This document shows positions 487 through 43,708 of a stretch of 64,000 nt of DNA, piece after piece; position 1 is the stretch's first letter; the number at the start of each line of letters is the position of its first letter. The notes beneath the pieces were generated by a model. It saw nothing but the letters and a program-made list of their open reading frames with translations, had not been told where the DNA came from and made no database searches. The DNA comes from Ostreococcus lucimarinus (taxonomy: Eukaryota). The DNA is taken from assembly GCA_000092065.1 (NCBI GenBank), contig CP000591.1; one strand, written 5' to 3'. Made by a program: the position numbers and the translations under genes.

Positions 487-523
<37 letters not shown>

Positions 524-849: not shown

Positions 850-3702
850 ATGCGCGGAAACAGATGCGCGGCGACGGCGCGCGCGACGGACGATCTGGGC
901 GCGCGAACGGCGGCGGCGGTGTGCGATGACGATCCGTTCGCGTTCGGGGCGCGCGCGCGGGCGCTGTTCGAGGACATCGACGGGGAGACGCTGGCGGAGG
1001 ACGACGACGACGACGACGACGACGCGAGACGCGGCGACGCGCGAAGGATCGGTCGGGGGGTGAGCGTGTTCGAGAAGGTGCGACGGGAGAAGGCGGGGAC
1101 GACGATGACGGCGACGACGGCGACGACGGCGACGGCGACGGCGACGGCGGAGGAAGAGGAAGAGGACGCGTTCGACGAGCCGAGGGCGAAGGCGAAGGCG
1201 AACGCGAAGAAGCCGGCGAAGGCGAAGGCGGGACGCGAGAGAGCGAGGGAAAAGACCGCGCGGGACGGCGGTGATGACGACGTGATGGTCGTGGACGACG
1301 ACGTCGGGGAGTGCGCGAGGCCGGCGGAGGATTTGTTTGACGAAGTCGCGGCGACGGGCGATAAGCGCGCGAAACGCGAGGTGAAGACGCTGGCGCGGCC
1401 GAAGAAGCGCGTCGTGGAGGCGCCGGCGGCGGTGGTCGAGACGCATGCGGTGATGCCGGCGCCGTCGGCGCGCGCGAAGGCGTCGACGACGGGGCGAATC
1501 CGGGCGTCGACGTCCGCCGCGGCGTCGGCGCCGCCGCCCGCGAAGAAGAAGAAGGTGTCGCTCAAGGAGTTCGCCGGGGAAGAAGACGGCGACGAGGGAG
1601 GGTTCGACGACGGCGAAGGCGACGACGACCACGGTCTGGTGCCGCAATCGGGCGCGCAGTTGGCGGACATCGATGAGGCCAACTACGCGGTGTCGGGGTT
1701 GTCCACCGTGAGGGACGTCAAGGAGAAGATGCGGTGCGTCGGCGTCTTGGCCAATTTGATGGGTAATCAGCGCACGCGCAGGCTGTTGGCGTCGTACGGC
1801 ATACCGATGAAGATCATCAAGGCTGCGCAAGACGCCGCGATGGCGCCGCACGCGCCCAATGCGTTGAAGTTTGGCGCCGCGGCGCTGTTGTATCTCGCCG
1901 CGAGCGATTTGCGGGCGCCCGCGACGGACGCGATGCGCAGCGTCAAGTCGGCGAACGCGATTCGCGCTTTGCTCCGTCCAGCGAGTTCGAGCGATGACGC
2001 GCTGTACTTGAAAACCGCCAACACGGTTCGCTCGGCGTTGAAGGCGTTGAAGTTTTTGCCGAACGAGGCCAAGGACGCGCCGACGCTCGCGCTCCTCGTC
2101 GCGCATCAAACGCTCAAGGGTGAGCAGGACGCCGTGCTCGCCTCGGGATCGGGTCCGGGCGCGGGTGACGTTGAAAATAGCTTCCGAACGATTTTGGCGA
2201 ATCAAGGCGCGGTGCTCGCGACGTGTGAACTCGTCGCGCAAGCCACGACGACGTTGAGCAAATTCGGCGGCGCGTGTTTCGTCGCGTCGGCGTCGGCATC
2301 GACGAACGATAGCGTTGACGACGAGTCCACGATCGAGGAGTACGAACAGAGTGCCGCGCGCGTGATCGCGCGTCTGTTCCGCGCGTCGCGTGTGCTCGAG
2401 TGTGTGAGCTTTGAATCGCCAGCCGCGTGCGCGGTGATTTCGACCTCGGCGCTTGGCGGATCGAAGAGAGACGACACGAACGCCGATGTGCGCCCTCTCG
2501 ACTTGCTCGCCGTGTCCACGACGCGCCTGGCGCCGGAAGACGGTCTGAACTCGTCGCGTGGCGATGGGAGAGGGGTTGAATCCGCGACGACGACGGCGGC
2601 GATTGATATCCCGTCGCCTTCGCCCGTCAAATCACGCATCCCGGGTGGAATCACGATGACCCCGCCGAGCACGCCCGGCGCGGTGCGCGTCGCTGGAACA
2701 TCCTACGACGACAACGATGGTTTAACCCCGCTTTCGTCTCCTGTACCGATCGGGTTGATGCAAACAGCCGCGACGCGAGACAACGCGGCAGCGATTCAGT
2801 GGTTGGCGGATAACGTGCGCACCCCCGTGAAGGGTGGATCGCACAACGCGCGAACGGCGTGTCGAGCACTCGTGGAGGCGCTTCCGACGCTTGCGGCGGC
2901 GACGACGGCGTCGGTCGTAGGCGCGAAGAAAGGAGACGTCGTGCAAGGCATCGAGATTCGTTACAACGCCGCCATCGCCGTCGACCACCGCGTCGCCGTC
3001 GGCGCGTTGAAATCCGCGTTGTGCACGCTGACGAACGTGACGAACGAGAATAAGGAGGGTTGTGACGCCGTCGTTGGGGAAGATAGTCGTGGATTACTCG
3101 TCATCGCGAGTTTAATTCCCTGGTTGGCGTTATCGATTGAAGGATTCACGCTTCGCGACGCGAAGGAGCGCAAGCGCACCCGAACGCCGACGGATGATTC
3201 CGGATCGTCACTCTTGAATGCCGCGCTGGTGTTGCTCGTCAACATCGTCGAAGCAGATGCGACGACGGCAGATGTCCTGCGCAACGCAATGGTGCGCTTA
3301 CCGGGCGACTCGTCTCGAGGCGCGTCCTTCGTCGAAGCGCTCACGATGTTGTACCTGCAGTCGGGCGGCGCCGACGAAGACGAAGACGAGGGCGAAAAAG
3401 AGACGGCCGAGGAGGCGCAACATCTCACGGCGGACATGATTAAATCTTACTCGTCGAAAACCAACGGCGACGATTTGATCTTACAGGCGTACTGCGGATT
3501 GTTGCTCGCGTTTTTGATCGAAGACGACGCCGCGTTGCGCGCCGAAGTCACGTCGACGTTTCCCGAAAAGCCGCAAGGCACTTCGCGTCTCAAGCCGTTG
3601 GCCGACACCCTCGAGCGTTTCCACGCGTTTCACGAGAGTTTGAATAGCATCTCTGCCGCGTCCAGCGAGCGACTGGTAAAGGTGGTGACCTGGCTCCGAT
3701 GA
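850..3702 (+). CDS. WAPL-like protein (possible cohesin release factor) with a long acidic, low-complexity N-terminal region
   Basis: 950-aa ORF. The C-terminal segment DDLILQAYCGLLLAFLIEDD...LERFHAFHESLN follows the pattern of the WAPL C-terminus (ASYTALLLGCL...KKFLSFMNL). Alpha-solenoid-like repeats lie upstream. Similarity is judged from memory and not verified. Confidence 0.4.
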   Translation: MRGNRCAATARATDDLGARTAAAVCDDDPFAFGARARALFEDIDGETLAEDDDDDDDDARRGDARRIGRGVSVFEKVRREKAGTTMTATTATTATATATAEEEEEDAFDEPRAKAKANAKKPAKAKAGRERAREKTARDGGDDDVMVVDDDVGECARPAEDLFDEVAATGDKRAKREVKTLARPKKRVVEAPAAVVETHAVMPAPSARAKASTTGRIRASTSAAASAPPPAKKKKVSLKEFAGEEDGDEGGFDDGEGDDDHGLVPQSGAQLADIDEANYAVSGLSTVRDVKEKMRCVGVLANLMGNQRTRRLLASYGIPMKIIKAAQDAAMAPHAPNALKFGAAALLYLAASDLRAPATDAMRSVKSANAIRALLRPASSSDDALYLKTANTVRSALKALKFLPNEAKDAPTLALLVAHQTLKGEQDAVLASGSGPGAGDVENSFRTILANQGAVLATCELVAQATTTLSKFGGACFVASASASTNDSVDDESTIEEYEQSAARVIARLFRASRVLECVSFESPAACAVISTSALGGSKRDDTNADVRPLDLLAVSTTRLAPEDGLNSSRGDGRGVESATTTAAIDIPSPSPVKSRIPGGITMTPPSTPGAVRVAGTSYDDNDGLTPLSSPVPIGLMQTAATRDNAAAIQWLADNVRTPVKGGSHNARTACRALVEALPTLAAATTASVVGAKKGDVVQGIEIRYNAAIAVDHRVAVGALKSALCTLTNVTNENKEGCDAVVGEDSRGLLVIASLIPWLALSIEGFTLRDAKERKRTRTPTDDSGSSLLNAALVLLVNIVEADATTADVLRNAMVRLPGDSSRGASFVEALTMLYLQSGGADEDEDEGEKETAEEAQHLTADMIKSYSSKTNGDDLILQAYCGLLLAFLIEDDAALRAEVTSTFPEKPQGTSRLKPLADTLERFHAFHESLNSISAASSERLVKVVTWLR

Positions 3703-3866
3703 CGAGACGATTTCGACGCCGATCGCGTAGCCGTGTGCGTTTTCTTGTGATAAAAATGAAACATCGTCGCCTTCGAAGACGACGCGGAGTGGTGCGATGC
3801 AAGCAAGGCAGTGCTTTTTCTTGTGCGCAGCTCGTAAAAAAACTTTTGCTCGCCAAAAGAGAAGTC

Positions 3867-3982
3867 GTGACCCAGGCAGGAGTCGAACCCGCAACCTTCA
3901 GATAACTTCAACGGCGTCCTCGCGTTCGCGAGGAGACTCTCGAATCACTGGAGTCTGACGCACTACCATTGTGCTACCGAGC
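3867..3982 (-). tRNA. tRNA-Trp (anticodon CCA) with a roughly 44-nt intron between positions 37 and 38
   Basis: The reverse complement reads GGCTCGG-TA-GCAC-AATGGTA-GTGC-G-TCAGA-CTCCAG[intron]A-TCTGA-AGGTT-GCGGG-TTCGACT-CCTGC-CTGGGTC-A. This closely matches eukaryotic tRNA-Trp (GTCTGACTCCAGATCAGAAGGTTGCG). The intron sits at the canonical position. Confidence 0.7.
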
Positions 3983-4612
3983 CATACATATTAAAGACAC
4001 ATTTAAGTCCATATGATATGACTAAATGAGCGATAAACTCCAATTAATGCGCCCTCTCGCGGGGATCGCACATGTGTTACGGGCGCGTCGACGCGCGACG
4101 CGTCGCGCGCGAATTCGCGGTCCACGTTCGCGCGCGCCGCACACTCCGCACGGATCTCTCACCCCCACCACACCTCTCGAGCGCGTTCCGCCCTCGTACG
4201 GTCGATAAAACGCACGCAGTTTTATCGTTTCATCGTTTCATCGCAGTTCAGGTGCGGGATTCGCGCGCGCGCGCGAGAAGGACGACATCGGGCGACACCG
4301 CGGGATTCGCGCGAGGGGTCGGTCGCGTCGCGCGGTGGATGCGCGACGCGACGCGGCGCGACGCGACGCGAATCCTCGTCGCGGTCGCGCGCGCGCGGGT
4401 TCGGCGATACGTTTTCGTCGACGTCGAACGCGCGCGCGAGGACGCGCGCGAAACGATCGACGAGGCGCGCGCGCGTCGATCGAACGCGACGAGGATTCGA
4501 GGGCGAGATAAAGATGGGAGCGAAGGCGGGAGCGAAGGCGGGAGCGAGCGAGCGAACGACTGACGCGATCGATCGTCGCGCCTGATGTAGACTACGAACA
4601 CACAGAAGAAGA

Positions 4613-4819
4613 ATGCCCGGCACGCAATCGGTATACGTCTCGCTGTCCATCCTCGCCCTGACGGGACTCGTCGGGACCGGGGTCGCCATCGGCTCGGGCG
4701 TGTCCATGATGTCCATGGCCATGGTCGAGGAAGAGCAAAAGCAGCAAGCGGTCGTGGCTTCCGTGAAGGAGGCGTCGGCGCGCGTGCCGTCTCGCGGTTT
4801 CGCCGCGAGCGGTAACTAG
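4613..4819 (+). CDS. hypothetical small membrane protein with a glycine-zipper TM helix
   Basis: 68-aa ORF in a lower-GC patch. It has a hydrophobic GLVGTGVAIGSGVSMM segment of GxxxG/GxGxG type followed by a charged tail. It may continue by splicing (GTAACT follows the stop). Very tentative. Confidence 0.2.
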   Translation: MPGTQSVYVSLSILALTGLVGTGVAIGSGVSMMSMAMVEEEQKQQAVVASVKEASARVPSRGFAASGN

Positions 4820-5014
4820 ACGGCCCGCCGTCGGTAAACATGTACCTACCGCCTTCACTTCCGGACGTCTCAAATCCGCCGTTCGTCGTGTTCGATACAT
4901 TCTTCACCTCCATCGTGTACCCGTAAAAGTTACTCACTTTCCTGATCTGTAATAAAAAGAAGCGGATGATGAAATATTAATTACACAAGTTTGTTTCGCG
5001 GTTTATTTCACTGC

Positions 5015-6946
5015 TTACTTGATTTTCATGACGTCCACGCGCGTGCGCTTGGCGACGTCGTGCGGGTGCGATTCGCCGTCGTCTTGTCCATCCGTCGTCG
5101 GGTGCACGACGATTTTCGCCAAGCCGCCGCCGACGGCGCCGCGCGCCAATCGACCGGGGTTGACGCACACGACGCCGTCGATGTCTTCGGCGAATGTTTT
5201 CAAGTCACTCGGCATGATCAACACGTCCGGGGTTTGCTTAAACGTCAGATCCTCGCCGTAACGCGCGTCCAAGCACGCCGACGCGTCCGGCGGGTACAGC
5301 GGGTACGCGCAGCCTTGCGTCAAGACGTGCTTGGCGAGACGCGCGAGGCGGTCTTTGGGCACGAATCCCTTGGAGATTTCTTGTGCGCTCAGATGCTTCA
5401 ACACGTCGTGCGAGCACGCGGAAAACACGATGCCGTTGATGGTGAACGTCCCGGGATTCGAGGCGGAGAACGCGCGCTTGGCGCGCGCCGCGTCGGCGCT
5501 CACGTACGCGTCGAGCGACGCCGCGGGTTGCGGGAACACGGGATCGAGCGTCACGTCGCGGATGCTCGGGACGAAGATCACTTTCGTGCGGATCGTCTCG
5601 TCCTTGAAGAGCTTGTCTTCAATCTTATCCACCACAACCTTGGCCACTTCGTCGTACGTCAACCCCCCGCACTCGGCGCGCTTGACAAAGGCGTTTTCGG
5701 CGTCCACGAGCGGGCCACACAAAACCAACGCGTCGGGATTTTCTTCGCGCACGTAATCCAACATATCGTTCAATGGCTCGTACTTCAAATCGCTCGAGCA
5801 CGAGAACGGCCCGCTGGCGACGATGACTTTCGTCCCTCTCGCGAACGCCGGCGACGTCTTTTTCGAACGCGCGGGCGCTCGCGCGGAGACGGCGTCGATG
5901 GATTTCGCCACCAAGCAGTGCCCCGCGGGGTTGCGCCCGCACACCTTGACGACTTGTCCCGGGAACAAGCTGTACTCTTTCATGTCGCGAAGCTCCAAGC
6001 GCACGCGCGCGCCGAACGAACCCTCGGTCGAGCCCTCGATGGCGACGGTTTTCTCCGTCAACTTGGCGTCGCCGGCGTGCGCGCTCACCACGCGCCCGAC
6101 AAAGTGTCCATCTTCGTCGCCAGTCTTTGACCCCACGGCGGAGACGCGCACGACGTCGGACGCCGAAGTCGTCGTCTGCGTCGCCTCGGTCGCCTTGACG
6201 TCCTCGTCGTCGTCCGCGTCGCCCAAAACCTCGAACAAATTCTCCGCGTCTCGAATGCGCTCGTCGACGACGCGCACGCGGTCGGAGATCCTATCCCGCA
6301 TGTATCGAAATTTGTCCGCGCTCACGATTTGCGTCATCGACACTTCGCTCTCTTCCGCGTCGTCCCGTTTCACCACGTCGCTTCCCAAGTGCGCGTTCAT
6401 CACCGTCCCCGCGCCGCCGTCGCTCCGACTCGCCAAACTCCCCGCGCTCCCCGGCGTCGCCGCGCGTTTCGCGTACTCACTCGTCTGCTCCCCCCCCACC
6501 GCGTTCAGCGCCTCCGACCACTCCCTCTTACTCCGCATCGGCGTTTTATACGTCCCCGTCGACGTCGATTCGCGTCTATCGCCACCCTTCGCGCTCGCCG
6601 GCGTCGTCGGCGTCGTCGGCGTCCCGCCCCGTCGTCGTTTTCTTCCGAATTCGCTCGTTTTCTGCGCCGTTTTCGTCGCGCTCTGCGATTCGCGCTGTTG
6701 TTTCCACGTCATCGCGAATCGTTCGAACGTTTCGATGCGCTCGATCGCGACGCTCTGGCGGTCTCGCGCGTCGAGCGTGTTCGAGAGTTCTAAATCAAAC
6801 ATCACCCAGCAGTCGGCGAGATCTTTCGACGTGAACGACAGCGCGCGCGCGACCGACGCGAGCGCGTCGCGGGCGACGTCGCTCGGGACGTCGAAGCCGT
6901 GCTCTTCGAAGCGCTCGCGGATGTCGGGCGGGAGGGCGGTCGTCAT
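5015..6946 (-). CDS. POLA2: DNA polymerase alpha subunit B (POLA2/Pol12)
   Basis: N-terminal domain followed by a calcineurin-like phosphoesterase domain with IVASGPF, LVLCGPLVD, KVIFVPSIRDV and VLIMPSDL motifs. Start taken at MTTALPPDIRERFEEHGF (ATG at 6946). The ORF-track extension to 7552 overlaps UGM in another frame and is run-through. Confidence 0.85.
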   Translation of the reverse strand: MTTALPPDIRERFEEHGFDVPSDVARDALASVARALSFTSKDLADCWVMFDLELSNTLDARDRQSVAIERIETFERFAMTWKQQRESQSATKTAQKTSEFGRKRRRGGTPTTPTTPASAKGGDRRESTSTGTYKTPMRSKREWSEALNAVGGEQTSEYAKRAATPGSAGSLASRSDGGAGTVMNAHLGSDVVKRDDAEESEVSMTQIVSADKFRYMRDRISDRVRVVDERIRDAENLFEVLGDADDDEDVKATEATQTTTSASDVVRVSAVGSKTGDEDGHFVGRVVSAHAGDAKLTEKTVAIEGSTEGSFGARVRLELRDMKEYSLFPGQVVKVCGRNPAGHCLVAKSIDAVSARAPARSKKTSPAFARGTKVIVASGPFSCSSDLKYEPLNDMLDYVREENPDALVLCGPLVDAENAFVKRAECGGLTYDEVAKVVVDKIEDKLFKDETIRTKVIFVPSIRDVTLDPVFPQPAASLDAYVSADAARAKRAFSASNPGTFTINGIVFSACSHDVLKHLSAQEISKGFVPKDRLARLAKHVLTQGCAYPLYPPDASACLDARYGEDLTFKQTPDVLIMPSDLKTFAEDIDGVVCVNPGRLARGAVGGGLAKIVVHPTTDGQDDGESHPHDVAKRTRVDVMKIK

Positions 6947-7068
6947 GGCGCGCGACGGCGTGTGGCGATCGCGCGGCGAGGCGTTTGAAAATTTAAAATC
7001 CGAGCTGTCGGGGGTGTACGAACGCGCGACGACGCGACGCGACGCGAAGCGCGCGGAATCGCGATCGA

Positions 7069-8433
7069 TCACTTCGGGCCGTCGCCCTCGCCCAGGACGG
7101 TCTTTTGGCGCTTCGCGTCGCGCGCGTCGCCGACGCTGAAGACGTCGTCGAAGGTTTCGAGCGCGTTTAAAAACGCCTGGTCCATGTTGAAGTACTTGTA
7201 ACTCGCGAGGCGGCCGACGAAGACGACGCCGGGCTCTTTCGCCGCCATGTCGCGGTACTTTTCGTATAACTCGCGGTTGGCGGGGTTGGGAACGGGGTAA
7301 TACGGCTCGCCGTGATCGCACGAGTACTCTTTGAAGACGACGGTGCCCGCGTGCTCGCGCGCCTCGCGCGGCTGGTTGGGCTTGTGCTTGTACTCGACGA
7401 CGCGCGTGTGCTCGACTTCCGGACCGGGGTAGTTGAGCTGTAAGCACGGTTGGTAGAAGAATGGTTTCGTTTTGTCCTCGCCCTCGTGGTACTCTTCGAA
7501 GAAACGCAGACTTCGGTACTCGAGCTTGGGCAAACCTTGAGACGCGTACCACGCGTCGATGGGGCCGGTGAAGACGACGAACTTTCGCGCCTTGCTTCTC
7601 AACATGTCTTTGTGCTCAAAAAAGTCGGTGTTCAGGCGCACGGTGATGTTCGGATCGCCCATGATCATATTTTCGAAAATCCTCGTGTACCCGTGCTTCG
7701 GCAACGCTTGGTGCGGATCGCTAAAGTACCTATCGTCGACGTCTTCGCGCACGGGTATCCTCGCCAAGACGCTCGCGTCCAGCTCCTCGGGGTACTTATC
7801 CCACTGCTTCTTCGTGTAATGCTTAAATATCGCCTCGTACAGCTCCGCCCCCGCCCTCGTCAGCGCGCTCTCTTCTCCGTTCTTCGGATTCTCGTTCACC
7901 GACCGTCTGGCGTCCAACCATCTTCGCGCGTCCTCGTCCGTCTTCAAATCCGCCTCGGGAAACAGCGCGTTGATCGTGTCCCTGTTCGGCGGCACCCCCA
8001 CGATTCGGTACCGCCTCCCCCCGTGTTCGTACTCCCCGTCCTCGCGCTCGATCGCCGCCTTCACTCGGTGTTCGTACGGCGTCCACTCGCTGAATCGATT
8101 CACGTATTCCCACACCCGCGCGTGCTTCGTGTGAAACAAGTGCACGCCGTACTGCGACACCCTGAACCCCTTCGCGTTCACGAAGTCGTAGCAGTTCCCG
8201 CCGACGTGATCGCGCTTGTCCACGAGAAGCGTCTTCATCCCGAGCTCTCGCGACGCGCGGCTCGCGAAGACGCAGCCCGAGATGCCGGCGCCGACGACGA
8301 CGAGGTCGAACTCGCGGTCGCGAATCCGCGCGTCGCTCGCGACGCCGGCGAACCAGCTCGGATCGTGGTCGTTGCCGCGACGGACGGAGACGTCCACGCC
8401 CGCCCACTCGTCGGCGTCGGCGCGCGCGCGCAT
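7069..8433 (-). CDS. UGM: UDP-galactopyranose mutase
   Basis: FAD-binding DLVVVGAGISGCVFA motif. The segments YTKKQWDKYPEELDASVLARIPV and PYYPVPNPANRELYEKY are typical of eukaryotic UGM (Glf). Start taken at MRARADADEW (8433). The upstream 208 aa of the track ORF are repeat and run-through. Confidence 0.85.
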   Translation of the reverse strand: MRARADADEWAGVDVSVRRGNDHDPSWFAGVASDARIRDREFDLVVVGAGISGCVFASRASRELGMKTLLVDKRDHVGGNCYDFVNAKGFRVSQYGVHLFHTKHARVWEYVNRFSEWTPYEHRVKAAIEREDGEYEHGGRRYRIVGVPPNRDTINALFPEADLKTDEDARRWLDARRSVNENPKNGEESALTRAGAELYEAIFKHYTKKQWDKYPEELDASVLARIPVREDVDDRYFSDPHQALPKHGYTRIFENMIMGDPNITVRLNTDFFEHKDMLRSKARKFVVFTGPIDAWYASQGLPKLEYRSLRFFEEYHEGEDKTKPFFYQPCLQLNYPGPEVEHTRVVEYKHKPNQPREAREHAGTVVFKEYSCDHGEPYYPVPNPANRELYEKYRDMAAKEPGVVFVGRLASYKYFNMDQAFLNALETFDDVFSVGDARDAKRQKTVLGEGDGPK

Positions 8434-8648
8434 GGCGACGCGACGCGGCGCGGTGTGCGGCGGAGCGGTCGGACGTCGGCGAACGACGACCGGTCGGCGA
8501 CGACCGCGGCGTCGCGCGCGACGTCGAGCGACGGCGCGCGCGCGTCGGCGCGTCGTCGACGTCGCGTCGGCGCGCGCTCTCGCGCCGTCGCGCGTCGCGT
8601 CGGGACACCGCGACGGCGTGAAGAGTCGAATCGTCACTTCGGCGCGCC

Positions 8649-8661
8649 ATGGGCGCCGCGC

Positions 8662-8723
<62 letters not shown>

Positions 8724-9467
8724 CCGCGCGACGCCGCGCGCGCGTCGTCGTCGCCGCCGGACGACGACGCGCCGACGCTCGCGCGCGCGCGCGAGGACGA
8801 CGCGACGCTGCGAACGAGCGAACCGTTGTTGACGCCGCGCGTGGCGCGCGCGCTGCGAGCGCGCGTCGAGCCGAGGGCGGGCGCGGTGACGTGGACGCGC
8901 GCGTTCGATTCGCGCGCGTGCGGATTGGCGAGTCTTCGTCGCGTCGTCGAGCGGTGCGCGGGCGTCGGACGCGCGCTCGTGCTCGTGCAACCCGAGGCGG
9001 CGGACGAGGCCGAGGCCGAGGACGAGGACGAGGCGTACTACGTCGCGCACGTCTCACCGGGTTTCCAAGCGAAGCCTCGGCACGATTTCCACGGCGACGA
9101 CGCGTGCAAGACGTTTCGCGTCGACGGAAAACGCGGCGTCGTCGTCGACACGTCCGGGGTCTCCGTCGCGCCGCTGTATTGCGCGTACGGCTACTCCCGA
9201 CACGGCGACGTCGTCAACGGGTTCGGGATGTTCGGTAAGATCGGGCGCCACGCCTTATTCGTGGACGCCGCCCTGGAAAACGCGCACGCGGACTTCGGCG
9301 CGCGTCGCTTCTCCGTGCGTCGCGTCGAAGTCTGGGCGCTTGAGGCGCGCGCGCCCGGAATCGACGCCGGCGCTTCGCCGCGCGCGGCGACGCGCGATCG
9401 AGCGACGATGGCGCAGTTTACGTCATCCGCGATCGCCCGCGACGTCCTCGACGCCACGACCGGCTGA
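8649..9467 (+). CDS. hypothetical protein whose C-terminal approximately 96 aa are duplicated downstream at 11611-11904
   Basis: 272-aa ORF. The N-terminus is low-complexity (MGAAPSSPSS..., possible MGxxxS myristoylation motif). A globular-looking region (AYYVAHVSPGFQAKPRHDFHGDD...GFGMFGKIGRHALFVDAALENAHADFG) spans the repeat boundary at 9175. No family recognised. Confidence 0.4.
8651..8726. repeat. (GTCGTCGCC)n microsatellite, about 8 units, in the divergent UGM / 8649-gene promoter and 5-prime region
   Basis: Direct reading. It translates as SPSSPSS on the plus strand and TTATTATT on the minus strand inside two different ORF extensions. Confidence 0.6.
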
Positions 9468-10119
9468 CATCAAGACCGCGACGGAACGTCGAGGAAAGAT
9501 CTCGTCGACGCGCTGTTTCGCGAGTGCGGCGGACCAGAAGGTGTGGGAGGCGCTGACGGATACGCGCGGCGTACGAGGCGACGTTCGCGGCGATTGAGGA
9601 CGCGCGTCGCGCGAGATAGATGATAGATTGATACTAGATAGATCTGATGCAGCTCCTAGGCAGTCTCCTACGCGGTAGGAGACCTTGTTGTAACATACGA
9701 TGTACGACGGATCCAAAAAGTGCGAGCACGTCACCGTCGACGACCCGTCCTCGAGCGCGCGAGCGCGACGCGCCGTTTTCAGTGACAAAAAAGAATGGCA
9801 ACTTTGTTACCTCACCGGGATTCGAACCCGAGTCTGTTCGTGGAAGCGCGTGGCGTGTCCGTCAGTGTCGCGTTCACAATTTTTGGTGTCAACGTGTCCG
9901 TTCGCGTGTTCACGTGCGATGGGCGCGAAGATGCGTAGAATACGTACCTCTAGGGTGAAAGCCTAGCGTGATAACCATCTACACTATGAAGTACCGCTCG
10001 ACCCCGCAAGGGGCCGCAGCGATCGATCTCTCCGATGTTTCGGAGTTCACGGGATGTACTCATGTTTCAGCTCGTCCACACTTTCGTGTGGCTAGATAGA
10101 GATGTGTGCGGCTTGACAC
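9175..10119. repeat. Copy 1 of a 945-bp direct repeat (segment A)
   Basis: Identical at the ORF-translation level in three frames to 11612-12556, with a constant offset of 2437 bp. Starts TGTATTGCG and ends GCTTGACA(C). Contains an ENY2-like gene fragment, a hairpin and a tRNA-like fragment. Confidence 0.8.
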
Positions 10120-10359
10120 GACGACGAGGTCGAACTCGCGGTCGCGAATCCGCGCGTCGCTCGCGACGCGGCGTCGTCGCGCGTCGTCGCTCGCGGGTGC
10201 GCGCGCGGCGCCATCACCGCGCGCCGCGAAGTGACGACGCCCGCGCCGCTCAGGAAAAATTTATATATCGCCCCTTTAGAGAGTACCTACACACATGACG
10301 AGTCATGAACCAAGGATGCGGGGAGATCTCGCCGTCGGCGCCACTCGTCGCCGCATACG

Positions 10360-11376
10360 ATGACCGATTCAGTCGCGCACGCCTCACCGACGTGGAGAAC
10401 GTACTCATTAGACCCGTCGCTGCAACCGGACTGGATGAACGGCACGGCGGAGGTAGAGGCGGTCAAAACAGCGGAGGATGAACTCGAGCGCTCGTACAAG
10501 AACAAGCCATTCTTCAAGAACACAAGCTACGAGGCATTCGCCAGAAAACGAGGCGAGTATGATAAACCGACGCCCGACGGCCTCGAGGAGTTCAAGCGTC
10601 TCCTACGGGCGAGTTATCTTCGCACCGTAGAGCGCATCGATGAAGATACCCAAGTTCTGGAAGCCCAGCTACAAGACGAGAATATCTCTGAAACGCGACG
10701 GTCGGTTATCCCGCAGCACATCGAGGACACTCGTGCGAAATTAAAAGAGCAAGACAATTCATTGAACGCGCTGTGCGCCGATGTGGATGCGGTTATCGCA
10801 GATTTGAAAGGCTTGCCCGATAAAATTGCCGACATAAAAGAACACGCCTCTGAACAACTTCAGCAACACAAAAGAAAAAGAACCAGTATATCTTTGGAAC
10901 GCAACCTCGAGGAGCTGAGCGATGCGCTGCGCAGCTACGAGGCGAAAAAAGAACAGGAGAGGCTCACAATTACCGATTATCGTGGGAAATATGGGTCATG
11001 TCCATCCCAGTATGTTCGCCAGACCGCCTGGGCACGCAGACCTTCTGGTCGTGAAGAAATTAGCTTCATTGTTCATCCTGTGGGTGTCATTGGCTGCGAT
11101 GGCAGTAACCTGAGCGTTGATGGACGTGTTTCGATTGATGGTTATGGTGAGTTTAACGTACCAAAATGGCAGCCTGAATGGGGACCTGAGAAGCAAATGT
11201 GTGCGTGCGAATGCTTCCAAGAGTGGTACAAAGTCGACGCCCAAGACCTTCTTTACAGCGCGCTTCGTGGCGTAGAGGGCGCGCTAAAGGCGCTCAGTGG
11301 TTCGGGAGATGACACGTCTTCGCTTCGACGGCGCTTGGGCGATGCCAATTTGGACGAAGCAAGCACGGGGAGTTAA
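10360..11376 (+). CDS. hypothetical coiled-coil protein, a compositional outlier at about 50% GC
   Basis: 338-aa intact ATG-initiated ORF with codon usage unlike the neighbouring genes. It has a Lys/Glu-rich predicted coiled-coil middle and a Cys/Trp-containing C-terminal region. Lies inside segment B between the two repeat copies. No family recognised. Confidence 0.45.
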   Translation: MTDSVAHASPTWRTYSLDPSLQPDWMNGTAEVEAVKTAEDELERSYKNKPFFKNTSYEAFARKRGEYDKPTPDGLEEFKRLLRASYLRTVERIDEDTQVLEAQLQDENISETRRSVIPQHIEDTRAKLKEQDNSLNALCADVDAVIADLKGLPDKIADIKEHASEQLQQHKRKRTSISLERNLEELSDALRSYEAKKEQERLTITDYRGKYGSCPSQYVRQTAWARRPSGREEISFIVHPVGVIGCDGSNLSVDGRVSIDGYGEFNVPKWQPEWGPEKQMCACECFQEWYKVDAQDLLYSALRGVEGALKALSGSGDDTSSLRRRLGDANLDEASTGS

Positions 11377-11410
11377 TATATGTGGACGTATATTTTGTTG
11401 TCCACGAATG

Positions 11411-11447
<37 letters not shown>

Positions 11448-11611
11448 CGCCTCCAGTCTCGACACAGTATCACTGAGTTCACTGCGAAGTTCGTCGATTT
11501 GCTGATCTCTCGAGGCAACGGCGGCCTCTAAATCGGCGATTTGAGCGTCGTGCTCGACGATTCTTTCGTGCAGCTCCTGGTTTGACTTGACGAGCACAGG
11601 AATGATTTGAG

Positions 11612-12556
11612 TGTATTGCGCGTACGGCTACTCCCGACACGGCGACGTCGTCAACGGGTTCGGGATGTTCGGTAAGATCGGGCGCCACGCCTTATTCGTG
11701 GACGCCGCCCTGGAAAACGCGCACGCGGACTTCGGCGCGCGTCGCTTCTCCGTGCGTCGCGTCGAAGTCTGGGCGCTTGAGGCGCGCGCGCCCGGAATCG
11801 ACGCCGGCGCTTCGCCGCGCGCGGCGACGCGCGATCGAGCGACGATGGCGCAGTTTACGTCATCCGCGATCGCCCGCGACGTCCTCGACGCCACGACCGG
11901 CTGACATCAAGACCGCGACGGAACGTCGAGGAAAGATCTCGTCGACGCGCTGTTTCGCGAGTGCGGCGGACCAGAAGGTGTGGGAGGCGCTGACGGATAC
12001 GCGCGGCGTACGAGGCGACGTTCGCGGCGATTGAGGACGCGCGTCGCGCGAGATAGATGATAGATTGATACTAGATAGATCTGATGCAGCTCCTAGGCAG
12101 TCTCCTACGCGGTAGGAGACCTTGTTGTAACATACGATGTACGACGGATCCAAAAAGTGCGAGCACGTCACCGTCGACGACCCGTCCTCGAGCGCGCGAG
12201 CGCGACGCGCCGTTTTCAGTGACAAAAAAGAATGGCAACTTTGTTACCTCACCGGGATTCGAACCCGAGTCTGTTCGTGGAAGCGCGTGGCGTGTCCGTC
12301 AGTGTCGCGTTCACAATTTTTGGTGTCAACGTGTCCGTTCGCGTGTTCACGTGCGATGGGCGCGAAGATGCGTAGAATACGTACCTCTAGGGTGAAAGCC
12401 TAGCGTGATAACCATCTACACTATGAAGTACCGCTCGACCCCGCAAGGGGCCGCAGCGATCGATCTCTCCGATGTTTCGGAGTTCACGGGATGTACTCAT
12501 GTTTCAGCTCGTCCACACTTTCGTGTGGCTAGATAGAGATGTGTGCGGCTTGACAC
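11612..12556. repeat. Copy 2 of the 945-bp direct repeat (segment A-prime)
   Basis: Same sequence as 9175-10119. The duplicated ORFs 11611-11904, 11628-11894, 11777-12034, 11860-12225, 12084-12395 and 12137-12403 are identical to their copy-1 counterparts. Confidence 0.8.
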
Positions 12557-12700
12557 CGCACATCTGATGAATGACTGTGCGCTAAACTTTTTCACCCAGA
12601 AATCGCGTCGACGGACGCGCGAATGTTACGGTCGGGCGTGACGTGTTTTCGCACGCCGCGCGCCGCGCGTCGTCGCGTTCGTCGCATTCCGCACTTCGCG

Positions 12701-14101
12701 ATGCCGCCGCGAAAGCGCGCGCGCGAGGCTTCGGGCGACCCGGTCGAAACAGAGGAGGGTTCAGCGCGCGCTCGGGATTCGACCGAACCGCCGTCGACCA
12801 CCGCGCCGTCGGCGCCGTGCCCGTACCTGGACACGGTGAACCTCGCGAACCTGGATTTTGACTTTGAGAAGCGGTGCGCGGTGTCGCTGTCGCCCGTGCA
12901 CGTGTACGCGTGCTTGGTCTGCGGCAAGTACTTCGCGGGACGAGGAAAGAAGACGCACGCGTACGCGCACGCGCTGGAGTGCGGACATCACGTGTTCATG
13001 CGCCTGGCCGACGGCGCGGCGTGGTGCCTGCCGGATGGGTACGAGGTGGTGGACGAAGGGACGACGCTGTCGAGGATTCGAGACGTGCTCGCGCCGACGT
13101 ACGCGAAAAAGTACGTGGAGGAAGAGATCGAGGGCGCGCGACCGATGTGGCGGCGCGCGCTGGACGGCACGGAGTTTCTCGTCGGCGTCGTCGGATTGAA
13201 CGCGATTTGGAGCAAACGCGACGACGGCGTGAGCGCGGTGCTGCAATCGCTGAACAGAGTGGCGCCGCTGCGGCGCGCGCTGTTGCTCGACGACGCGAGG
13301 GAACGCGAGGACGTCTATCGCGCCTTGGCGGACATCACGAAGAAGATTTGGAACGCGCGAAATTTTAAAGGTCACTCGAGCCCGCACGAGTTCATGCAAG
13401 CGGTTCGAAATCGATCGAAAGACGCGTTCGGCGCGGAGACGGGGAACCACGACGCCGCGCAGTTCTTGCGTTGGTTGCTCAACGAATTGATTCGCGACGA
13501 AAAGAAACGCGGCGAAAAGCGATCCGTCATTCAGTCGTGTTTCCAGGGAGAAGTGGAAATCATCGACGATTCGTCCGCGTCGCGCGCGTCGCCGTTCCTC
13601 ATGCTCTCGATGGACCTCCCGAACGCGCCGCTGTTTCAAGACGTCATGGAGAAGAACATCATCCCGCAAGTCTCCCTCGAGCGCGCGCTGCTGAAGAAAT
13701 TCGACGGCGTCACCGCGGACCCCAAGACGCGGCGCAGGTTCAAGATCACCAAGCTCCCAAACTACTTGATCGTGAATTATTCGCGCTTCACCAAGAACAA
13801 CTTCTTCGTCGAAAAGAACCCGACCATCGTGACGTTTCCGACGCGGGGGCTGAACCTCGCCGATCACATCCCGGTGCCGAGAGGGGACGAAAATTCGGCG
13901 ACGTACGATTTGATCGCCAACATCGTGCACGACGGCGCGCCCGACGACGGGTCGTATCGCGCCATGGTGTACCACGCGCCGGATAAAAATTGGTACGAGA
14001 CGCAGGATTTGCGCGTCGCCGAGGTGTTGCCGCAACAAGTCAACCTCACGGAGACGTACGTGCAGATTTACGAGCGTCGAGACAAGCGACGAGACGCGTA
14101 G
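12701..14101 (+). CDS. USP39: U4/U6.U5 tri-snRNP-associated protein 2 (USP39/Sad1), an inactive UBP-type hydrolase
   Basis: ZnF-UBP region (CPYLDTVNLANLDFDFEKRCAVSLS...YACLVCGKYFAGRGKKTHAYAHALECGHHVFM) followed by a UCH-like domain (GLNAIWSKRDDGVSAVLQSLNRV ... YDLIANIVHDG). ATG taken at 12701 (MPPRKRARE). Confidence 0.8.
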   Translation: MPPRKRAREASGDPVETEEGSARARDSTEPPSTTAPSAPCPYLDTVNLANLDFDFEKRCAVSLSPVHVYACLVCGKYFAGRGKKTHAYAHALECGHHVFMRLADGAAWCLPDGYEVVDEGTTLSRIRDVLAPTYAKKYVEEEIEGARPMWRRALDGTEFLVGVVGLNAIWSKRDDGVSAVLQSLNRVAPLRRALLLDDAREREDVYRALADITKKIWNARNFKGHSSPHEFMQAVRNRSKDAFGAETGNHDAAQFLRWLLNELIRDEKKRGEKRSVIQSCFQGEVEIIDDSSASRASPFLMLSMDLPNAPLFQDVMEKNIIPQVSLERALLKKFDGVTADPKTRRRFKITKLPNYLIVNYSRFTKNNFFVEKNPTIVTFPTRGLNLADHIPVPRGDENSATYDLIANIVHDGAPDDGSYRAMVYHAPDKNWYETQDLRVAEVLPQQVNLTETYVQIYERRDKRRDA

Positions 14102-14202
14102 GACTCGAAAACCACATTTAGAATAATAATAGAAAACAAACGTCTCGCGATGACGAATACAACGAATACAAATACAATACACACGTCGCGCGTCGACGGA
14201 CG

Positions 14203-14216
14203 CTAATCGCCCTCGC

Positions 14217-14247
<31 letters not shown>

Positions 14248-14985
14248 CCACCCGAGCGCTTCCATCGCGTTCGCGAGCTCCGCCTCGAGCACGGGCGCGT
14301 CCGCCGCGCGCGCCGCCGCGCTGTTCTCCACCGTCGCGTGATCCACCGCGCTCCGCATCGAATACATCACCCGCCACTCCAACGCCCAAGCGTCCACGGG
14401 TCCGAACGACCGCGAGTCCTCGTGTCTCCCCGCGCTCTTCGCCGAATCCGTCTCCGCGTCCGCGTCCGCCGTCACCCACGCGTGATCCTTCGGCACCACG
14501 TACACGCTCGCGTTCGCCGCGTCCACGAGTTCGTCGCCCTCCGTCGCGCTCACGCGTCGTATCAGCGTTCGCGTCGCGTCGCTCGGGTGCGCGAACGCCA
14601 CCACGTCCCCGATCGCGGCGCTCCGAAACGGGTGCGCCAGCCTTCGCGCGAGCACGTACTCCGTCCCGGATCCTCCTCGCGCGCTCGACGGTCCCGGCGC
14701 GTCGCGCGCGCCGCCGCGCAGCGTCGGCGTCATCGCGTCGCCGCGAAACGCGAACACGCGCGTCATCGCGTCCTCGCCGATCGCGCGCACCGCCTCGGCG
14801 AGCGGCGCGCGCGGCGCGCGCGGCGCCGTCGTCGGGTCGTCGTCGTCGTCGTCGTCGTCGTCGACGTCGCGCGAGCGCGCGGTCGCGGCGACGGGGCGCG
14901 CGGCGGCGGACGACGCGGCGACGAGGGCGGGGACGAAGAGCGTCATGATTCGCTCCCAGTGGTACGACAGGCGGAGGGCGCCCAT
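14203..14985 (-). CDS. mitochondrial inner membrane protease (IMP1/IMP2, S26 signal peptidase I) homologue with a substituted catalytic dyad
   Basis: Collinear with IMP2: RGDAMTPTL versus GASMQPSL, GDVVAF...LIRRVSATEGDEL versus GDIVSL...IIKRVIALEGDIV, and HEDSRSFGPV versus SFDSNSFGPV. Ser is replaced by Ala in the first motif and Lys by Arg in the second, read directly from the DNA. Confidence 0.6.
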
Positions 14986-15115
14986 GACGGGCGTCGGCGC
15001 GTCGACGAGTGGCGCGGGCGCGGCGCGAGCGGGCTCGATCGGCGCGTACCGCTGTCTGTGAAACGTGGCTAATGATTCGCGACGATCTCGAACGTCGAGT
15101 CCTAAACGCTAGGTT

Positions 15116-16915
15116 TTAATTCGCGGTTTCGTCCGCCGTCGCGTCGATCGCGCGATCCTCGATGCGCTTTTCGCGGCGATTCCACTGGGCGCGGTCGCGC
15201 GCGGCGAGGAGCAAAGGTATCTCCGGCGGAACGGGCGCGTCGCGCCTGACGAAGCAATCGCCCATGAACTCTTTCTCTTGTTCGTCTTTGCACGACACGC
15301 GCTGGAGGAAATCGAGCGGTGATCGCGGCACGCCGGTTTCGTGGTGCTTCGAGCGAAACCGCGCGGCTTCGATGTAGGCGCCAAAGTCGCCGTGTTTGAC
15401 GCCGAGAAGATCGGCGTCGGAGGAGCATCCGCCCATTTTATCGGCTTTGGGGAACACGGTGGGGCCTTTGGCGAGCACCGCGCACAGGCCAACCTTGATG
15501 TCCGTGCTTTGCACTCGCAAGAGCTTGCGGAAGCCGGGAGACCACGTGCTCGGATGATCGTACCGCCAACTCGTGTACTCGTTGTACCTCGACTCATCGC
15601 TCGCGATCGCCTCGAGCTCGGCCGCGAGCGCCTCGAAGCTATCGTAGTCGCGCAAATCAATGTATGATTTCTTCGTCGGCATGAGCTCGGTGAACGAATC
15701 GTGACCAGTGTATATCGGAATCGAGCCGCGGGCGAGCGCCATCCACACCTTCTCCGTCATGTACCCTTGGCACATCGGTGCGTTCTCCACGGCGAAATAA
15801 AACATGTAGCGCGCCATCTTACTCTGATACTCCAGGTTTTCCACCCCGCGGCCGGGCAAGTTGCGCGGCAAGTGGTAGTTATTGAAGCAATTCCCCATGG
15901 AAAACGTCGGAAAGTGTTCGGCGAGACCGACGACGATGCCGGGTCGCGGAGGAAGGCAATCGATGGCGATCCAAGCCACCGCGGGAATCCTCTCCGAGTG
16001 AGGAATCGTGTACGCGGGGAAATCTTCCGCCATCGAATCCAGCGACGGGCCGAACGGCCACCAAATAGCCGACCGTTTCTGATCGAAATACCCGACGTAA
16101 TCGAACTCTCTGACGACTTTCGGGTTTTGCAAATCCTTCCCAAAAGTCGCCACGGCTTCGTGCGCCATGTACACGTCCACCTGACCCGGGTCTATCTTTG
16201 CAGGTTTCGCGTACGAACCGTCTTTCCCTTTATTCTTGCCGCGCCACAAGTACCCCGATTGACTAAACACTCTCACGTCGGCTCTCTTGTCGCCGTCGCA
16301 TCCGATGACGACCTTCTCCACGCACGCGCCGGGAGTGAACAACCTTCCGAACCCTTTCACGTAGGTCGAGTCCCAGGCATCCGCCGGCATGTCCACGCAC
16401 ATCGTGAACCCGGTCTCCGAGCGCGTCACCGCCGGCGCGTGCGCGTACGACGACACGTCGACGTCGGCGTCGTAGCCTCGAAACGCGTCCGGCAGATACG
16501 CGTGCCGAATCGGATCCAACGCCGCCGCCACCGCGAGCTGATCCACCTTCCCGTGCGCGTTCCTGTAGTACGCCTGCGCGATCATCGCCTTCCGAGTCGC
16601 CCTCGCGTCGCCGAGCTTCGCCGCGCTCGCGCCGAGACCGCCGTCTCGCGTCGCCGCCGCCGCCGCGCCGATCGCCGCGCACGCCGCCAGCGCGCCCGCC
16701 CCGACCCGCGCCCGCGTCCACCGTCCGCCGCGCCTCGCGTCGCCGGCGTCGCCGCCGCCGCCGTCGCCTCGCGCGCGCGTCGCGTTCGCCGTCGTCGTCG
16801 TCGCGCGCTCGACGTCGTCGAGGTGTTGACGCCATCCTTCGTCATCCGTCGCCGTCGCGCGCGCGCGCGTCAGCAGGGACGCGCGCTCGGCGCTCGCCGT
16901 CGACGCCGTCGGCAT
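15116..16915 (-). CDS. alpha-1,3/4-fucosyltransferase (glycosyltransferase family 10), type II membrane protein
   Basis: GT10 signature YMFYFAVENAPMCQGYMTEKVWMALARGSIPIYTG (compare YKFYLAFENS..DYVTEKLW). N-terminal hydrophobic anchor GAGALAACAAIGAAAAA. Confidence 0.75.
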   Translation of the reverse strand: MPTASTASAERASLLTRARATATDDEGWRQHLDDVERATTTTANATRARGDGGGGDAGDARRGGRWTRARVGAGALAACAAIGAAAAATRDGGLGASAAKLGDARATRKAMIAQAYYRNAHGKVDQLAVAAALDPIRHAYLPDAFRGYDADVDVSSYAHAPAVTRSETGFTMCVDMPADAWDSTYVKGFGRLFTPGACVEKVVIGCDGDKRADVRVFSQSGYLWRGKNKGKDGSYAKPAKIDPGQVDVYMAHEAVATFGKDLQNPKVVREFDYVGYFDQKRSAIWWPFGPSLDSMAEDFPAYTIPHSERIPAVAWIAIDCLPPRPGIVVGLAEHFPTFSMGNCFNNYHLPRNLPGRGVENLEYQSKMARYMFYFAVENAPMCQGYMTEKVWMALARGSIPIYTGHDSFTELMPTKKSYIDLRDYDSFEALAAELEAIASDESRYNEYTSWRYDHPSTWSPGFRKLLRVQSTDIKVGLCAVLAKGPTVFPKADKMGGCSSDADLLGVKHGDFGAYIEAARFRSKHHETGVPRSPLDFLQRVSCKDEQEKEFMGDCFVRRDAPVPPEIPLLLAARDRAQWNRREKRIEDRAIDATADETAN

Positions 16916-18491: not shown

Positions 18492-18875
18492 ATGCCTCGC
18501 CCCACCCCCGCGCCGCCGCCGCCGCCGGCGGCGCGCGACGTCGACGTCGAGCGCGACGCGCTCACCGCGATGCGCAAAGACGGCACGCTCGACGCCCTGC
18601 GCGCGCGCGCGGTCGAGCGCGTTCGCGCGGACCCAGAGATGAAAACCTTCACGGAATTCGCGGCGCGCGCGTCGCAGACGCTGCGCGACCCGCGAGCGAG
18701 GCGCGCGTCGAGGAAAGATCTCGTCGACGCGCTGTTTCACGAGTGCGGCGGACAGATTTTGAAGCAGGCGGACCAGAAGGTGTGGGAGGCGCTGACGGAT
18801 ACGCGCGACGAACTCGGCCGCGCGGCGTACGAGGCGACGTTCGCGGCGATGGAGGACGCGCGTCGCGCGAGATAG
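18492..18875 (+). CDS. ENY2/Sus1-like small protein (SAGA/TREX-2 subunit)
   Basis: 127 aa. ...PEMKTFTEFAARAS...DLVDALFHECGGQILKQADQKVWEALTD follows the ENY2 pattern (LKAHCKEVIKEKG...[26 protein letters not shown]). Degenerate partial copies of its 3-prime end occur at about 9490-9650 and 11927-12087. Confidence 0.4.
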   Translation: MPRPTPAPPPPPAARDVDVERDALTAMRKDGTLDALRARAVERVRADPEMKTFTEFAARASQTLRDPRARRASRKDLVDALFHECGGQILKQADQKVWEALTDTRDELGRAAYEATFAAMEDARRAR

Positions 18876-19157
18876 ATACCGATAGATAATAGATTGATAA
18901 TACATAGATCTGATGTAGCTGATGCCGCCGCCGTCGCGTCGGACGGATCGCCTCGGTCGCCTTCGGTTCGCTTCTCGGCGGCGGCCGCCGACGCGGACGC
19001 CGCCGCGCGTCGCGGTCGTCATGCGCGCGGTTGTGCGGCGACGATTTATTTTACGCCGCGCGACGGGCGAGCGACGCCGGCGAATCGAGCGACGCTGAAT
19101 GCCCGTACGCTGGAATCGCGCGCGAACGCTGACGCGACGATTCGTCCGAGTGGGTGG

Positions 19158-42304: not shown

Positions 42305-42350
42305 ATTTAGCGGCTGGTGTTCGCGTCCCCTGAATGATTGACGCGATACG

Positions 42351-43688: not shown

Positions 43689-43708
43689 CTGCAACTAACT
43701 GATTCTTT

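Follow-up and report, generated by a model that had tools for sequence, protein, structure and literature searches.

An intact low-GC gene of a probably horizontally spreading Mamiellales family in a polymorphic, repair-type insertion of Ostreococcus lucimarinus

We analyzed a 64,000-nucleotide stretch of Ostreococcus lucimarinus CCE9901 DNA (contig CP000591.1), called the window below, and in particular an open reading frame (ORF) at 10360..11376 (+) together with the inserted segment in which it lies. The ORF starts with ATG and runs uninterrupted for 338 aa, exactly as described in an initial annotation made from the sequence alone. The protein is identical to XP_001420301.1/ABO98594.1, which is annotated as a 'predicted protein' of O. 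lucimarinus CCE9901 on a record of 593,542 bp. Since the UniRef100 cluster of XP_001420301.1 has one member (n=1), there is a single annotated copy in CCE9901, and no paralogue was found inside the 64-kb window. The gene is annotated yet uncharacterised, and the orphan status it had been given was wrong: a search of 5.8 billion proteins identified 49 homologous 90%-identity clusters.

The low GC content noted initially ('about 50%') was measured as 52.6% (0.59/0.43/0.56 for codon positions one, two and three, GC1/2/3), against a mean of 62% for the window. Of the ORFs in the window that run from ATG to stop over 200 aa or more and show a codon-position pattern like that of coding DNA, ORF 10360..11376 has the lowest GC3. 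Most of these ORFs reach 0.77-0.92, and only a few, at 34-44 kb and 59 kb, are found at 0.60-0.63. The latter form a block of large genes (34168-44000 and 59198-60067; local GC down to 0.49-0.55), where the minus strand carries an ORF of 1899 aa and the plus strand two others, of 1099 and 445 aa.

Perfect direct repeats of 945 bp (A and A', 100% identical; Table 1) bracket positions 10120-11611 and with them the ORF, in line with its proposed location inside an insert. The inserted segment (the bracketed part, X, plus A') amounts to 2,437 bp and consists of a donor fragment of about 1.36 kb, 136 nt of filler and the 945-bp target duplication. The donor fragment comprises a promoter region and the coding sequence (CDS), followed by a hairpin spacer of 57 nt and by the final 70 codons of a fibre-like protein gene in convergent orientation. 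Its upstream region has lost 71 nt at about 10311/10312 compared with copies on metagenome contigs (L001/L003/L006/L008-10). The break at which insertion took place lies between GLF and USP39, about 126 nt upstream of a gene for tRNA-Glu. Because it sits in A, which is repeated as A', this tRNA gene (Rfam 41.5 bits; missed by ARAGORN) has been duplicated. Microhomology was found at both junctions, with 2 nt (AC) shared between A and the 52-nt patch that opens the filler, and 4 nt (TGTA) shared between the donor unit and the start of A.

Table 1. Features at the insertion site, with positions in the window
Feature	Position	Strand	Remarks
52-nt patch donor	8294..8345		inside UDP-galactopyranose mutase (GLF) coding region, 1.8 kb upstream
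Target-site copy 1 (A)	9175..10119		contains 3' end of 272-aa gene (8649-9467) and tRNA-Glu(UUC)
tRNA-Glu(UUC) in A	9807-9993	-	116-nt non-canonical intron in variable-loop region; Rfam 41.5 bits
Left-junction filler P	10118..10253		136 nt, three parts
Filler part 1	10118-10169		exact 52-nt copy of 8294-8345
Filler part 2	10170-10217		GC-rich DNA, source not recognised
Filler part 3	10218-10253		inverted copy of 36 nt flanking the fibre stump in L001/L003/L006
Donor unit upstream region	10254..10359	+	begins GGAAAAATTTATATATCG; includes TATA-like motif
338-aa ORF	10360..11376	+
Spacer hairpin	11381..11406		GTGGAC-N12-GTCCAC core, between convergent stops
S74 fibre-like gene, 3' stump	11433..11615	-	last 70 codons and stop, truncated at junction
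Target-site copy 2 (A')	11612..12556		duplicated tRNA-Glu at 12244-12430; runs into ancestral USP39 upstream region
tRNA-Glu(UUC) in A'	12244-12430	-	identical to 9807-9993 copy; Rfam 41.5 bits

Via the USP39-type neighbour, we reached three long contigs of relatives (L024-L026, 86-342 kb), which match the window at 88-98% identity along 20 kb and share with it the order 950aa-PolA2-GLF-[A]-USP39-S26-GT10. Each carries one copy of A, which runs directly into the USP39 upstream region (...GGCTTGACAC/CGCACATCTG...), as A' does in the window. The 338-aa ORF and the minus-strand fragment are absent from the GLF-USP39 site in all three. As these contigs share the gene order and have an empty site, the 2,437-bp segment is derived and polymorphic. 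A check for the same gene in synteny in relatives without the duplication found none. The recent relocation by repair that had been suggested is thus in agreement both with such close relatives lacking the gene and the duplication and with junctions that show microhomology and templated filler.

Metagenome contigs L004, L005 and L007, from several samples, independently reproduce both window junctions, so that the insertion is no assembly artefact. In L004, positions 1-4145 correspond to window 8762-12556 followed by 10118-10466 again (A-X-A-X), which may represent a tandem array of the 2,437-bp unit in some strains or an assembler loop. Identity of L024-L026 to window 229-22000 is mosaic along the 20 kb: going from left to right, with 12.8-17 kb as the middle part, L024 for example matches at 98%, 89% and 94.5%, and L025 at 91%, 89% and 97%. 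The pattern points to recombination among divergent haplotypes of the O. lucimarinus clade, with a contribution of long-read errors (GLF is called in fragments).

Comparable structures are known from O. tauri, where integration of free linear DNA was accompanied by a 518-bp direct target duplication, fillers of 55-83 bp (one of them viral), inserts that were truncated or rearranged, and copies in tandem or inverted arrangement (PMC8002553). The window insertion resembles these polyethylene glycol (PEG) lines in its target duplication (945 bp here, 518 bp there), in filler of unknown or foreign origin (136 nt here, 55-83 bp there), and in truncated or rearranged inserts with tandem or inverted versions (compare A-X-A-X in L004). 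It differs in that event and donor are natural, in that a filler piece was templated from 1.8 kb upstream, and in that an expressed-looking host-type gene was inserted instead of a vector. The junctions with 2-4 nt of microhomology, the short nearby-templated insertion and the flanking duplication are also reminiscent of fork stalling and template switching (FoSTeS) and microhomology-mediated break-induced replication (MMBIR), although the main piece here comes from an unlinked or extrachromosomal donor and the mechanism can be read from the junctions only. We conclude that a low-GC donor fragment of about 1.36 kb was captured recently in CCE9901 at a break upstream of tRNA-Glu. Repair of an end-joining or template-switching type added the 136 nt of filler, including the 52-nt patch from 1.8 kb upstream, and used the 2- and 4-nt microhomologies, leaving the 945-bp direct target duplication.

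Some additional observations concern the surroundings of the insertion. A third tRNA missed by ARAGORN lies at 3868-3983 (-; 116 nt, Rfam 52.7 bits, non-canonical intron), and window 18706-18920 is 75% similar to the tRNA-Glu area. The 272-aa gene has (SPS)n at its N-terminus, encoded by a perfect tandem repeat of 9 bp, (CGCCGTCGT)n, at 8650-8735; the repeat lies on the strand opposite to an upstream extension of the GLF reading frame.

The exact 338-aa protein was also found on metagenome contigs in 45 collection blocks (23 contigs were read), in several arrangements. The identical copy lies downstream of low-GC MCM (GC3 0.41), SMP_LBD (0.45), XPG and DDE_Tnp_4 genes in L001/L002, downstream of GC-rich RAI1-type genes in L003, and next to a third upstream flank in L008-L010. 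The unit starts at the same base (GGAAAAATTTATATATCG) in all these arrangements. Overlaps of 55 nt between the ends of L008-L010 and window 9148-9202 were not interpreted, as they are probably assembly-graph k-mer overlaps.

The partner gene in the donor fragment was recognised from its longer versions. In L001/L003/L006, the minus-strand frame extends further; it contains no Met, and a gene caller for prokaryotes listed it with a GTG start as '102 aa'. An early reading of this ORF as similar to the end of a Peptidase_S74 domain was dropped because the fragment by itself gave only coiled-coil matches (Pfam, PDB), and the affiliation was settled later via a full-length homologue. The '102-aa' frame corresponds to the C-terminus of a 973-aa protein on contig L038 (70% identity, E=1e-39), and the window stump aligns to the last 70 residues of the same protein with 77% identity. 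The L038 protein has a Peptidase_S74 (intramolecular chaperone) domain with 26.5 bits versus a Pfam cutoff of 22. As in S74 tail-fibre and endosialidase proteins, a coiled coil comes after the domain at the C-terminus, and heptad and Asn/Ser-rich repeats of fibre-like type precede the domain. In contrast to such proteins, the window stump is a non-functional remnant without S74 domain and start codon, and the 338-aa ORF has no S74 similarity.

The length of the fibre-gene stump varies between contexts, with 117 aa in L001/L003/L006, 70 aa in the window type, 26 aa in L030/31/35/36 and about 22 aa in L027/28. Further downstream tblastx matches to the fibre gene in L031/L036 were discounted, since tblastn confirmed only the last 26 residues. 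The nested stumps and the full-length gene in L038 indicate that the window unit was copied only in part from a locus where the gene and the fibre gene lie tail to tail. The donor would then be a locus or element of about 50% GC with the gene tail-to-tail to a full-length fibre-like gene. The 57-nt spacer (window 11377-11432) is 100% identical to its equivalents in L038, L027, L028, L031 and L035; it is better conserved than the CDS, being identical where the CDS differs by up to about 16%. The hairpin spacer could be a bidirectional terminator or another functional element.

The 36 nt that form the last part of the filler occur beside the fibre stump in L001 (11383-11420), L003 (5343-5480) and L006, and in inverted orientation upstream of the unit in the window (10218-10253). 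A 12-nt string, CCGCGCGCCGCG, is common to the filler and the USP39 upstream region (12656-12667), where L001 diverges from the window. Derivation of the window arrangement from that of L001 or L003/L006, as seen in short metagenome contigs, via one inversion or template switch was tried and fails: the 36 nt are found in inverted orientation on the other side of the unit, and the far flanks are different.

Homologues of the gene form a small, narrow family of Mamiellales type. An exhaustive profile search of 1.8 billion representatives identified only 17. The family divides into an Ostreococcus-type branch (65-99% identity, O. tauri included) and a more distant one (41-48%). All 17 copies examined have an intact 338-aa CDS, and flank clustering of 47 loci gave at least nine unrelated upstream and at least nine unrelated downstream contexts. 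No synteny was found among O. tauri, L012, L022, L023, L027/28 and L001/L003. For example, P0009 (88% identical) lies between genes for 680 and 266 aa, P0036 adjoins Rad51, P0018 adjoins a tRNA methyltransferase and ORC4, and P0003/P0005 are found between SPRY and inositol-pentakisphosphate kinase genes. L001 was considered as a conserved home locus and rejected, as its 668-aa SMP_LBD gene is not homologous to the 680-aa neighbour in L012. Between lineages, DNA homology covers only the CDS and 13-124 nt, with different extents each time. The copied extents are nested (-186/+390, -38/+124, -46/+65, and -13 to inside the CDS).

In O. tauri, only one gene separates the copy from a (CCCTAAA)n telomere, and the distance to the end is 2.6 kb (ostta09; L011, the end of CAID01000009.2). 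Positions 1-450 of L011 consist of (CCCTAAA)n followed by about 350 nt of degenerate telomere-like repeats. Compared with all other copies, the last ~20 codons of the O. tauri copy are replaced, which points to a break within the CDS at its 3' end.

The composition of the gene is nearly constant in these settings. GC is 0.50-0.55 in nearly all contexts, with L022 (0.60) as the sole higher one, and the GC3 values measured are 0.54-0.59. Flanks matching the composition of the gene were found in L038 (0.52), L039/L040 (0.47-0.51), L044 and on the upstream side of L001. The L039/L040 flanks encode GDP-mannose dehydratase and nucleotide-sugar transporters; sugar-metabolism and transporter genes are typical of the small outlier chromosome (SOC). 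Other flanks have 0.60-0.66 GC, so that the gene is a composition island there. A low-GC compartment or foreign source, as had been inferred from composition, is thus consistent with identical copies adjoining low-GC DNA (L001) and with others in SOC-like or virus-like contexts.

Synonymous divergence (dS, by Nei-Gojobori) places the copies close together. It is 0 among the window, L001 and L003 copies, whose CDS are identical in the three contexts. Between the window copy and others it is 0.05-0.14 for five other contexts, 0.27 for L023, 0.34-0.35 for O. tauri and 0.78 for L022. The window and O. tauri copies have 81% amino acid identity, with a proportion of synonymous differences (pS) of 0.28. 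As a host control, we used the FAF1/UBX gene beside the O. tauri copy, in place of a named O. tauri USP39 orthologue. Its lucimarinus-type orthologue differs from O. tauri with pS 0.72 and dS ~2.5, and every non-tauri homologue among the 5.8 billion proteins is at most 65% identical. Likewise, USP39 has no homologue above 69% identity outside the lucimarinus clade. Orthologues of O. tauri and O. lucimarinus average 73.8% amino acid identity (PMC5371798). With 81% identity at a ratio of nonsynonymous to synonymous divergence (omega) of ~0.4, and dS of 0.35 versus ~2.5, the copies of the gene share a far younger ancestor than the host genomes, as expected if foreign DNA is involved. On a shorter scale, the window and L001 have 0/1306 differences in the core of the unit versus 5 substitutions and 2 indels in the adjacent 1313 nt; the chance of no core difference is roughly 0.001-0.007.

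Omega is 0.3-0.4 overall, 0.14-0.24 in the helical core of the protein and ~1 in linker residues 201-235, which indicates purifying selection in the core and a fast-evolving linker. Such selection would also be expected for a vertically inherited resident gene of low expression, and annotation in the reference as a single copy (UniRef100 n=1) would fit it too. We nevertheless regard this explanation, or an artefact of the reference assembly, as barely credible. Three related genomes carry empty-site alleles, other lineages lack synteny and have differing neighbours, and dS is anomalously low (0.35 versus ~2.5), while an artefact is at odds with the independent metagenome contigs that reproduce both junctions in several samples.

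The many contexts, with a CDS that is always intact, could also be taken as the mark of an autonomous mobile element, with the ORF as a novel His/Cys recombinase or nuclease and the 3' hairpin as recombination site. A left end that is identical in four flanks, the perfectly conserved hairpin spacer and invariant His and Cys residues can be cited in its favour. We consider such an element very unlikely, since the copied extents are nested and differ per context, neither terminal inverted repeats nor a fixed-size target duplication is present, and the filler and microhomology at the window junction are typical of repair and not of transposition. Searches of Pfam, PHROGs, PDB and predicted fold yielded no similarity to transposases, integrases or nucleases, and the 338-aa protein does not appear to encode its own mobility. 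Nested extents, absence of terminal repeats and repair-type junctions together disfavour any transposon with ends of its own.

Comparison with individual classes of mobile DNA gave the same picture. Unlike cut-and-paste transposons, the unit has no terminal inverted repeats at its ends and is variable in extent, and a 945-bp duplication with filler is unlike the target-site duplication left by a transposase. Helitrons have 5'-TC ... CTRR-3' ends and a subterminal 3' hairpin and insert between A and T. Here the unit starts with GGAAAAATTT, the 3' ends vary, and the hairpin directly follows the stop codon and is not at the end of the element. A-runs, as expected for a processed retrogene, are not found at the 3' boundaries (...GAGTGTA/TTGCGCG in the window, ...GTCGATTT/TTAATTC in L027); intron loss is uninformative in this respect, as the gene is intronless everywhere.

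A link to virus-like DNA comes from the distant branch. The homologue P0042 (46% identity) lies on L020, a gene-dense contig of 18 kb with uniformly 49% GC. In its part 1-16435, L020 encodes a P-loop ATPase that matches the PHROG terminase large subunit (3e-9) and weakly HerA. Other genes specify an S74/tail-fibre fragment, a BNR/sortilin-like protein, a DNA methylase, DUF285, HHH_8, and Prim-Pol plus DUF5906. L020 and L021 have about 1.1 kb around the gene in common, and nothing else. Going by these similarities the gene content of L020 is virus-like, and the contig may represent an undescribed small virus-like element of a Bathycoccus-type host. Distant homologues on such a contig also speak for the foreign DNA that had been suspected initially.

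Hallmarks of polinton-like viruses and virophages are a double jelly-roll capsid protein, a penton protein and an FtsK/HerA-type packaging ATPase, with or without a replication module. L020, which is incomplete at both ends, has the ATPase-like protein and Prim-Pol/DUF5906, and no capsid protein could be recognised by sequence. The similarity to polinton-like viruses, virophages and endogenous viral fragments lies in the terminase-like packaging ATPase, the Prim-Pol plus D5-type helicase, the DNA methylase and the S74 fragment of L020, and in the partial, non-autonomous nature of the window insert. The differences are that capsid, protease, integrase and polymerase B were not recognised, that the viral contig collection yielded no copy, and that Ostreococcus-type copies occur alone or with the fibre-like gene only.

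Large double-stranded DNA viruses of picoalgae had been named initially as possible donors, and nothing in our data points to prasinoviruses specifically as the source. An endogenised prasinovirus fragment would have low GC, S74 tail-fibre-like domains are common in viruses, and short prasinovirus-derived segments have been reported in Ostreococcus genomes (PMC5498103, PMC13390643). In addition, the copies of O. tauri and O. lucimarinus are 81% identical at the amino acid level, just as reported on average for the viruses of the two species (PMC5371798). Such an origin is very improbable all the same. A scan of the 2.9 million IMG/VR contigs with the two most conserved family motifs gave no confirmed relative (L020 itself is also absent from this collection). 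The 52% GC and GC3 of 0.56 exceed the 37-45% GC of prasinoviruses (PMC5371798). No core or hallmark gene of prasinoviruses or other nucleocytoplasmic large DNA viruses (NCLDV, Nucleocytoviricota) was seen beside any family copy in the flanks examined.

Purely intragenomic traffic has to be considered as well. The gene would then be a host gene of low-GC outlier compartments (big outlier/mating-type region or SOC) that was copied segmentally, with no foreign DNA involved. This would suit the identical L001 copy beside low-GC MCM, SMP_LBD, XPG and DDE_Tnp_4 genes, and the L039/L040 copy among SOC-like sugar genes at 0.47-0.51 GC. Translocations between outlier and standard chromosomes are documented (PMC8557840, PMC5498103, PMC13390643); they include exchanges between the low-GC mating-type region and autosomes (PMC8557840) and outlier-chromosome rearrangements in O. 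mediterraneus, with 4 nt of microhomology at an SOC fusion (PMC13390643). The hypervariability and chromoplexy of the SOC and the outlier-autosome translocations (PMC5498103, PMC13390643, PMC8557840) have low GC, strain-specific presence or absence, duplications, translocations and microhomology in common with our case, and some family members do lie among sugar-metabolism and transporter genes. The present insertion differs from them in affecting a standard 593-kb chromosome, over 2.4 kb only, and low dS across species has not been reported for SOC rearrangements. We judge intragenomic traffic alone to be unlikely, though deserving of serious attention, as it leaves unexplained both a dS of 0.13-0.35 between copies where host genes are saturated and the distant homologue beside packaging-ATPase-like and primase-helicase genes.

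The protein itself offers limited clues to function. In agreement with the initial statement that no family was recognisable, Pfam gave no significant match (best E = 0.11) and PHROGs no match. PADLOC gave only weak coiled-coil matches to LmuB (SMC-like; 5e-5), with the ATPase heads absent, and a PDB profile search gave only coiled coils (best E >= 0.019). The protein thus fits no curated family (Pfam, PHROGs, PADLOC) or solved structure tested. The charged coiled-coil core and the Cys/Trp-containing C-terminus that had been pointed out are both real. AlphaFold2, run on a 22-sequence alignment, predicts a long antiparallel helical hairpin (residues ~72-204) with a predicted local distance difference test (pLDDT) score above 90. 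The C-terminal part of the full-length model is poor, and a model of the C-terminus only reached pLDDT 51. A structure-based assignment of function was given up on these grounds, as Foldseek against PDB found nothing below E=1 (E >= 1.2). The Cys/Trp-rich C-terminus is the best-conserved non-helical part of the family, with H239, C246, W270, W274, C281 and C283 invariant across 22-37 homologues, down to 43% identity. Invariance of H239, C246, C281 and C283 suggests a metal site, and the beta-rich C-terminal domain may bind zinc via these residues. The protein is therefore predicted to combine an antiparallel coiled coil with a conserved His/Cys, beta-rich C-terminal domain. A structural or adaptor role tied to the S74 fibre-like partner is a tentative suggestion, and the protein may play a role in host-virus interaction.

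Together, the above observations support the initial reading, which was essentially right in postulating a recent, repair-mediated arrival from low-GC or foreign DNA. We consider it rather probable that the intact Mamiellales-family gene travels as a nomadic passenger on horizontally spreading mobile DNA of low GC and probably virus-like nature. The dS values, the lack of synteny, the constant composition and L020 suggest that the family would have been repeatedly re-seeded into standard chromosomes, crossing Ostreococcus species boundaries. The carrier would most likely be a virus-like or other extrachromosomal vector. More tentatively, and with less probability than the contrary, the gene and its S74 partner may be parts of an undescribed small virus-like Mamiellales element that crosses species and seeds chromosomes, subtelomeres and outlier chromosomes, and the protein may act in host interaction, with superinfection and susceptibility to viruses as examples.

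Several points weigh against horizontal spread by such a carrier. Four different flanks share one and the same left end of the unit (GGAAAAATTT...), which purely random breakage would not predict, and no single simple event links the L001, L003/L006 and window arrangements. The dS control consists of one gene at the DNA level plus protein-level controls, and L029 is placed in the lucimarinus type by inference only. Some of the metagenomic contexts could be orthologous positions in undescribed species and not transpositions. No vector was identified, the IMG/VR scan being without a relative. Neither L020 nor L038 has a capsid gene recognisable by sequence, and the two contigs could belong to an outlier chromosome of the host. 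Finally, any function given to the protein is tentative, and its C-terminal model (pLDDT 51) is unreliable.

Ostreococcus is the smallest free-living eukaryote and a model for the way in which marine phytoplankton genomes cope with viruses, and its genome plasticity has so far been localised mainly to the two outlier chromosomes. The insertion described here is a natural case, resolved to the base and on a standard chromosome, of the signature of free-DNA capture that is known from laboratory transformants, and its presence/absence polymorphism can be tracked in ocean metagenomes. The finding exceeds one odd gene, as the polymorphism stems from a captured fragment of a nomadic, probably horizontally spreading family. 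The coalescence of family copies far later than their host species implies an unrecognised route of gene flow between picoalgal species. The carrier is possibly a small virus-like element of a kind undescribed for picoalgae, and the gene with its S74 partner provides a handle for finding this vector. If the protein does act in host interaction, the maintained coiled-coil/His-Cys protein would not be junk.

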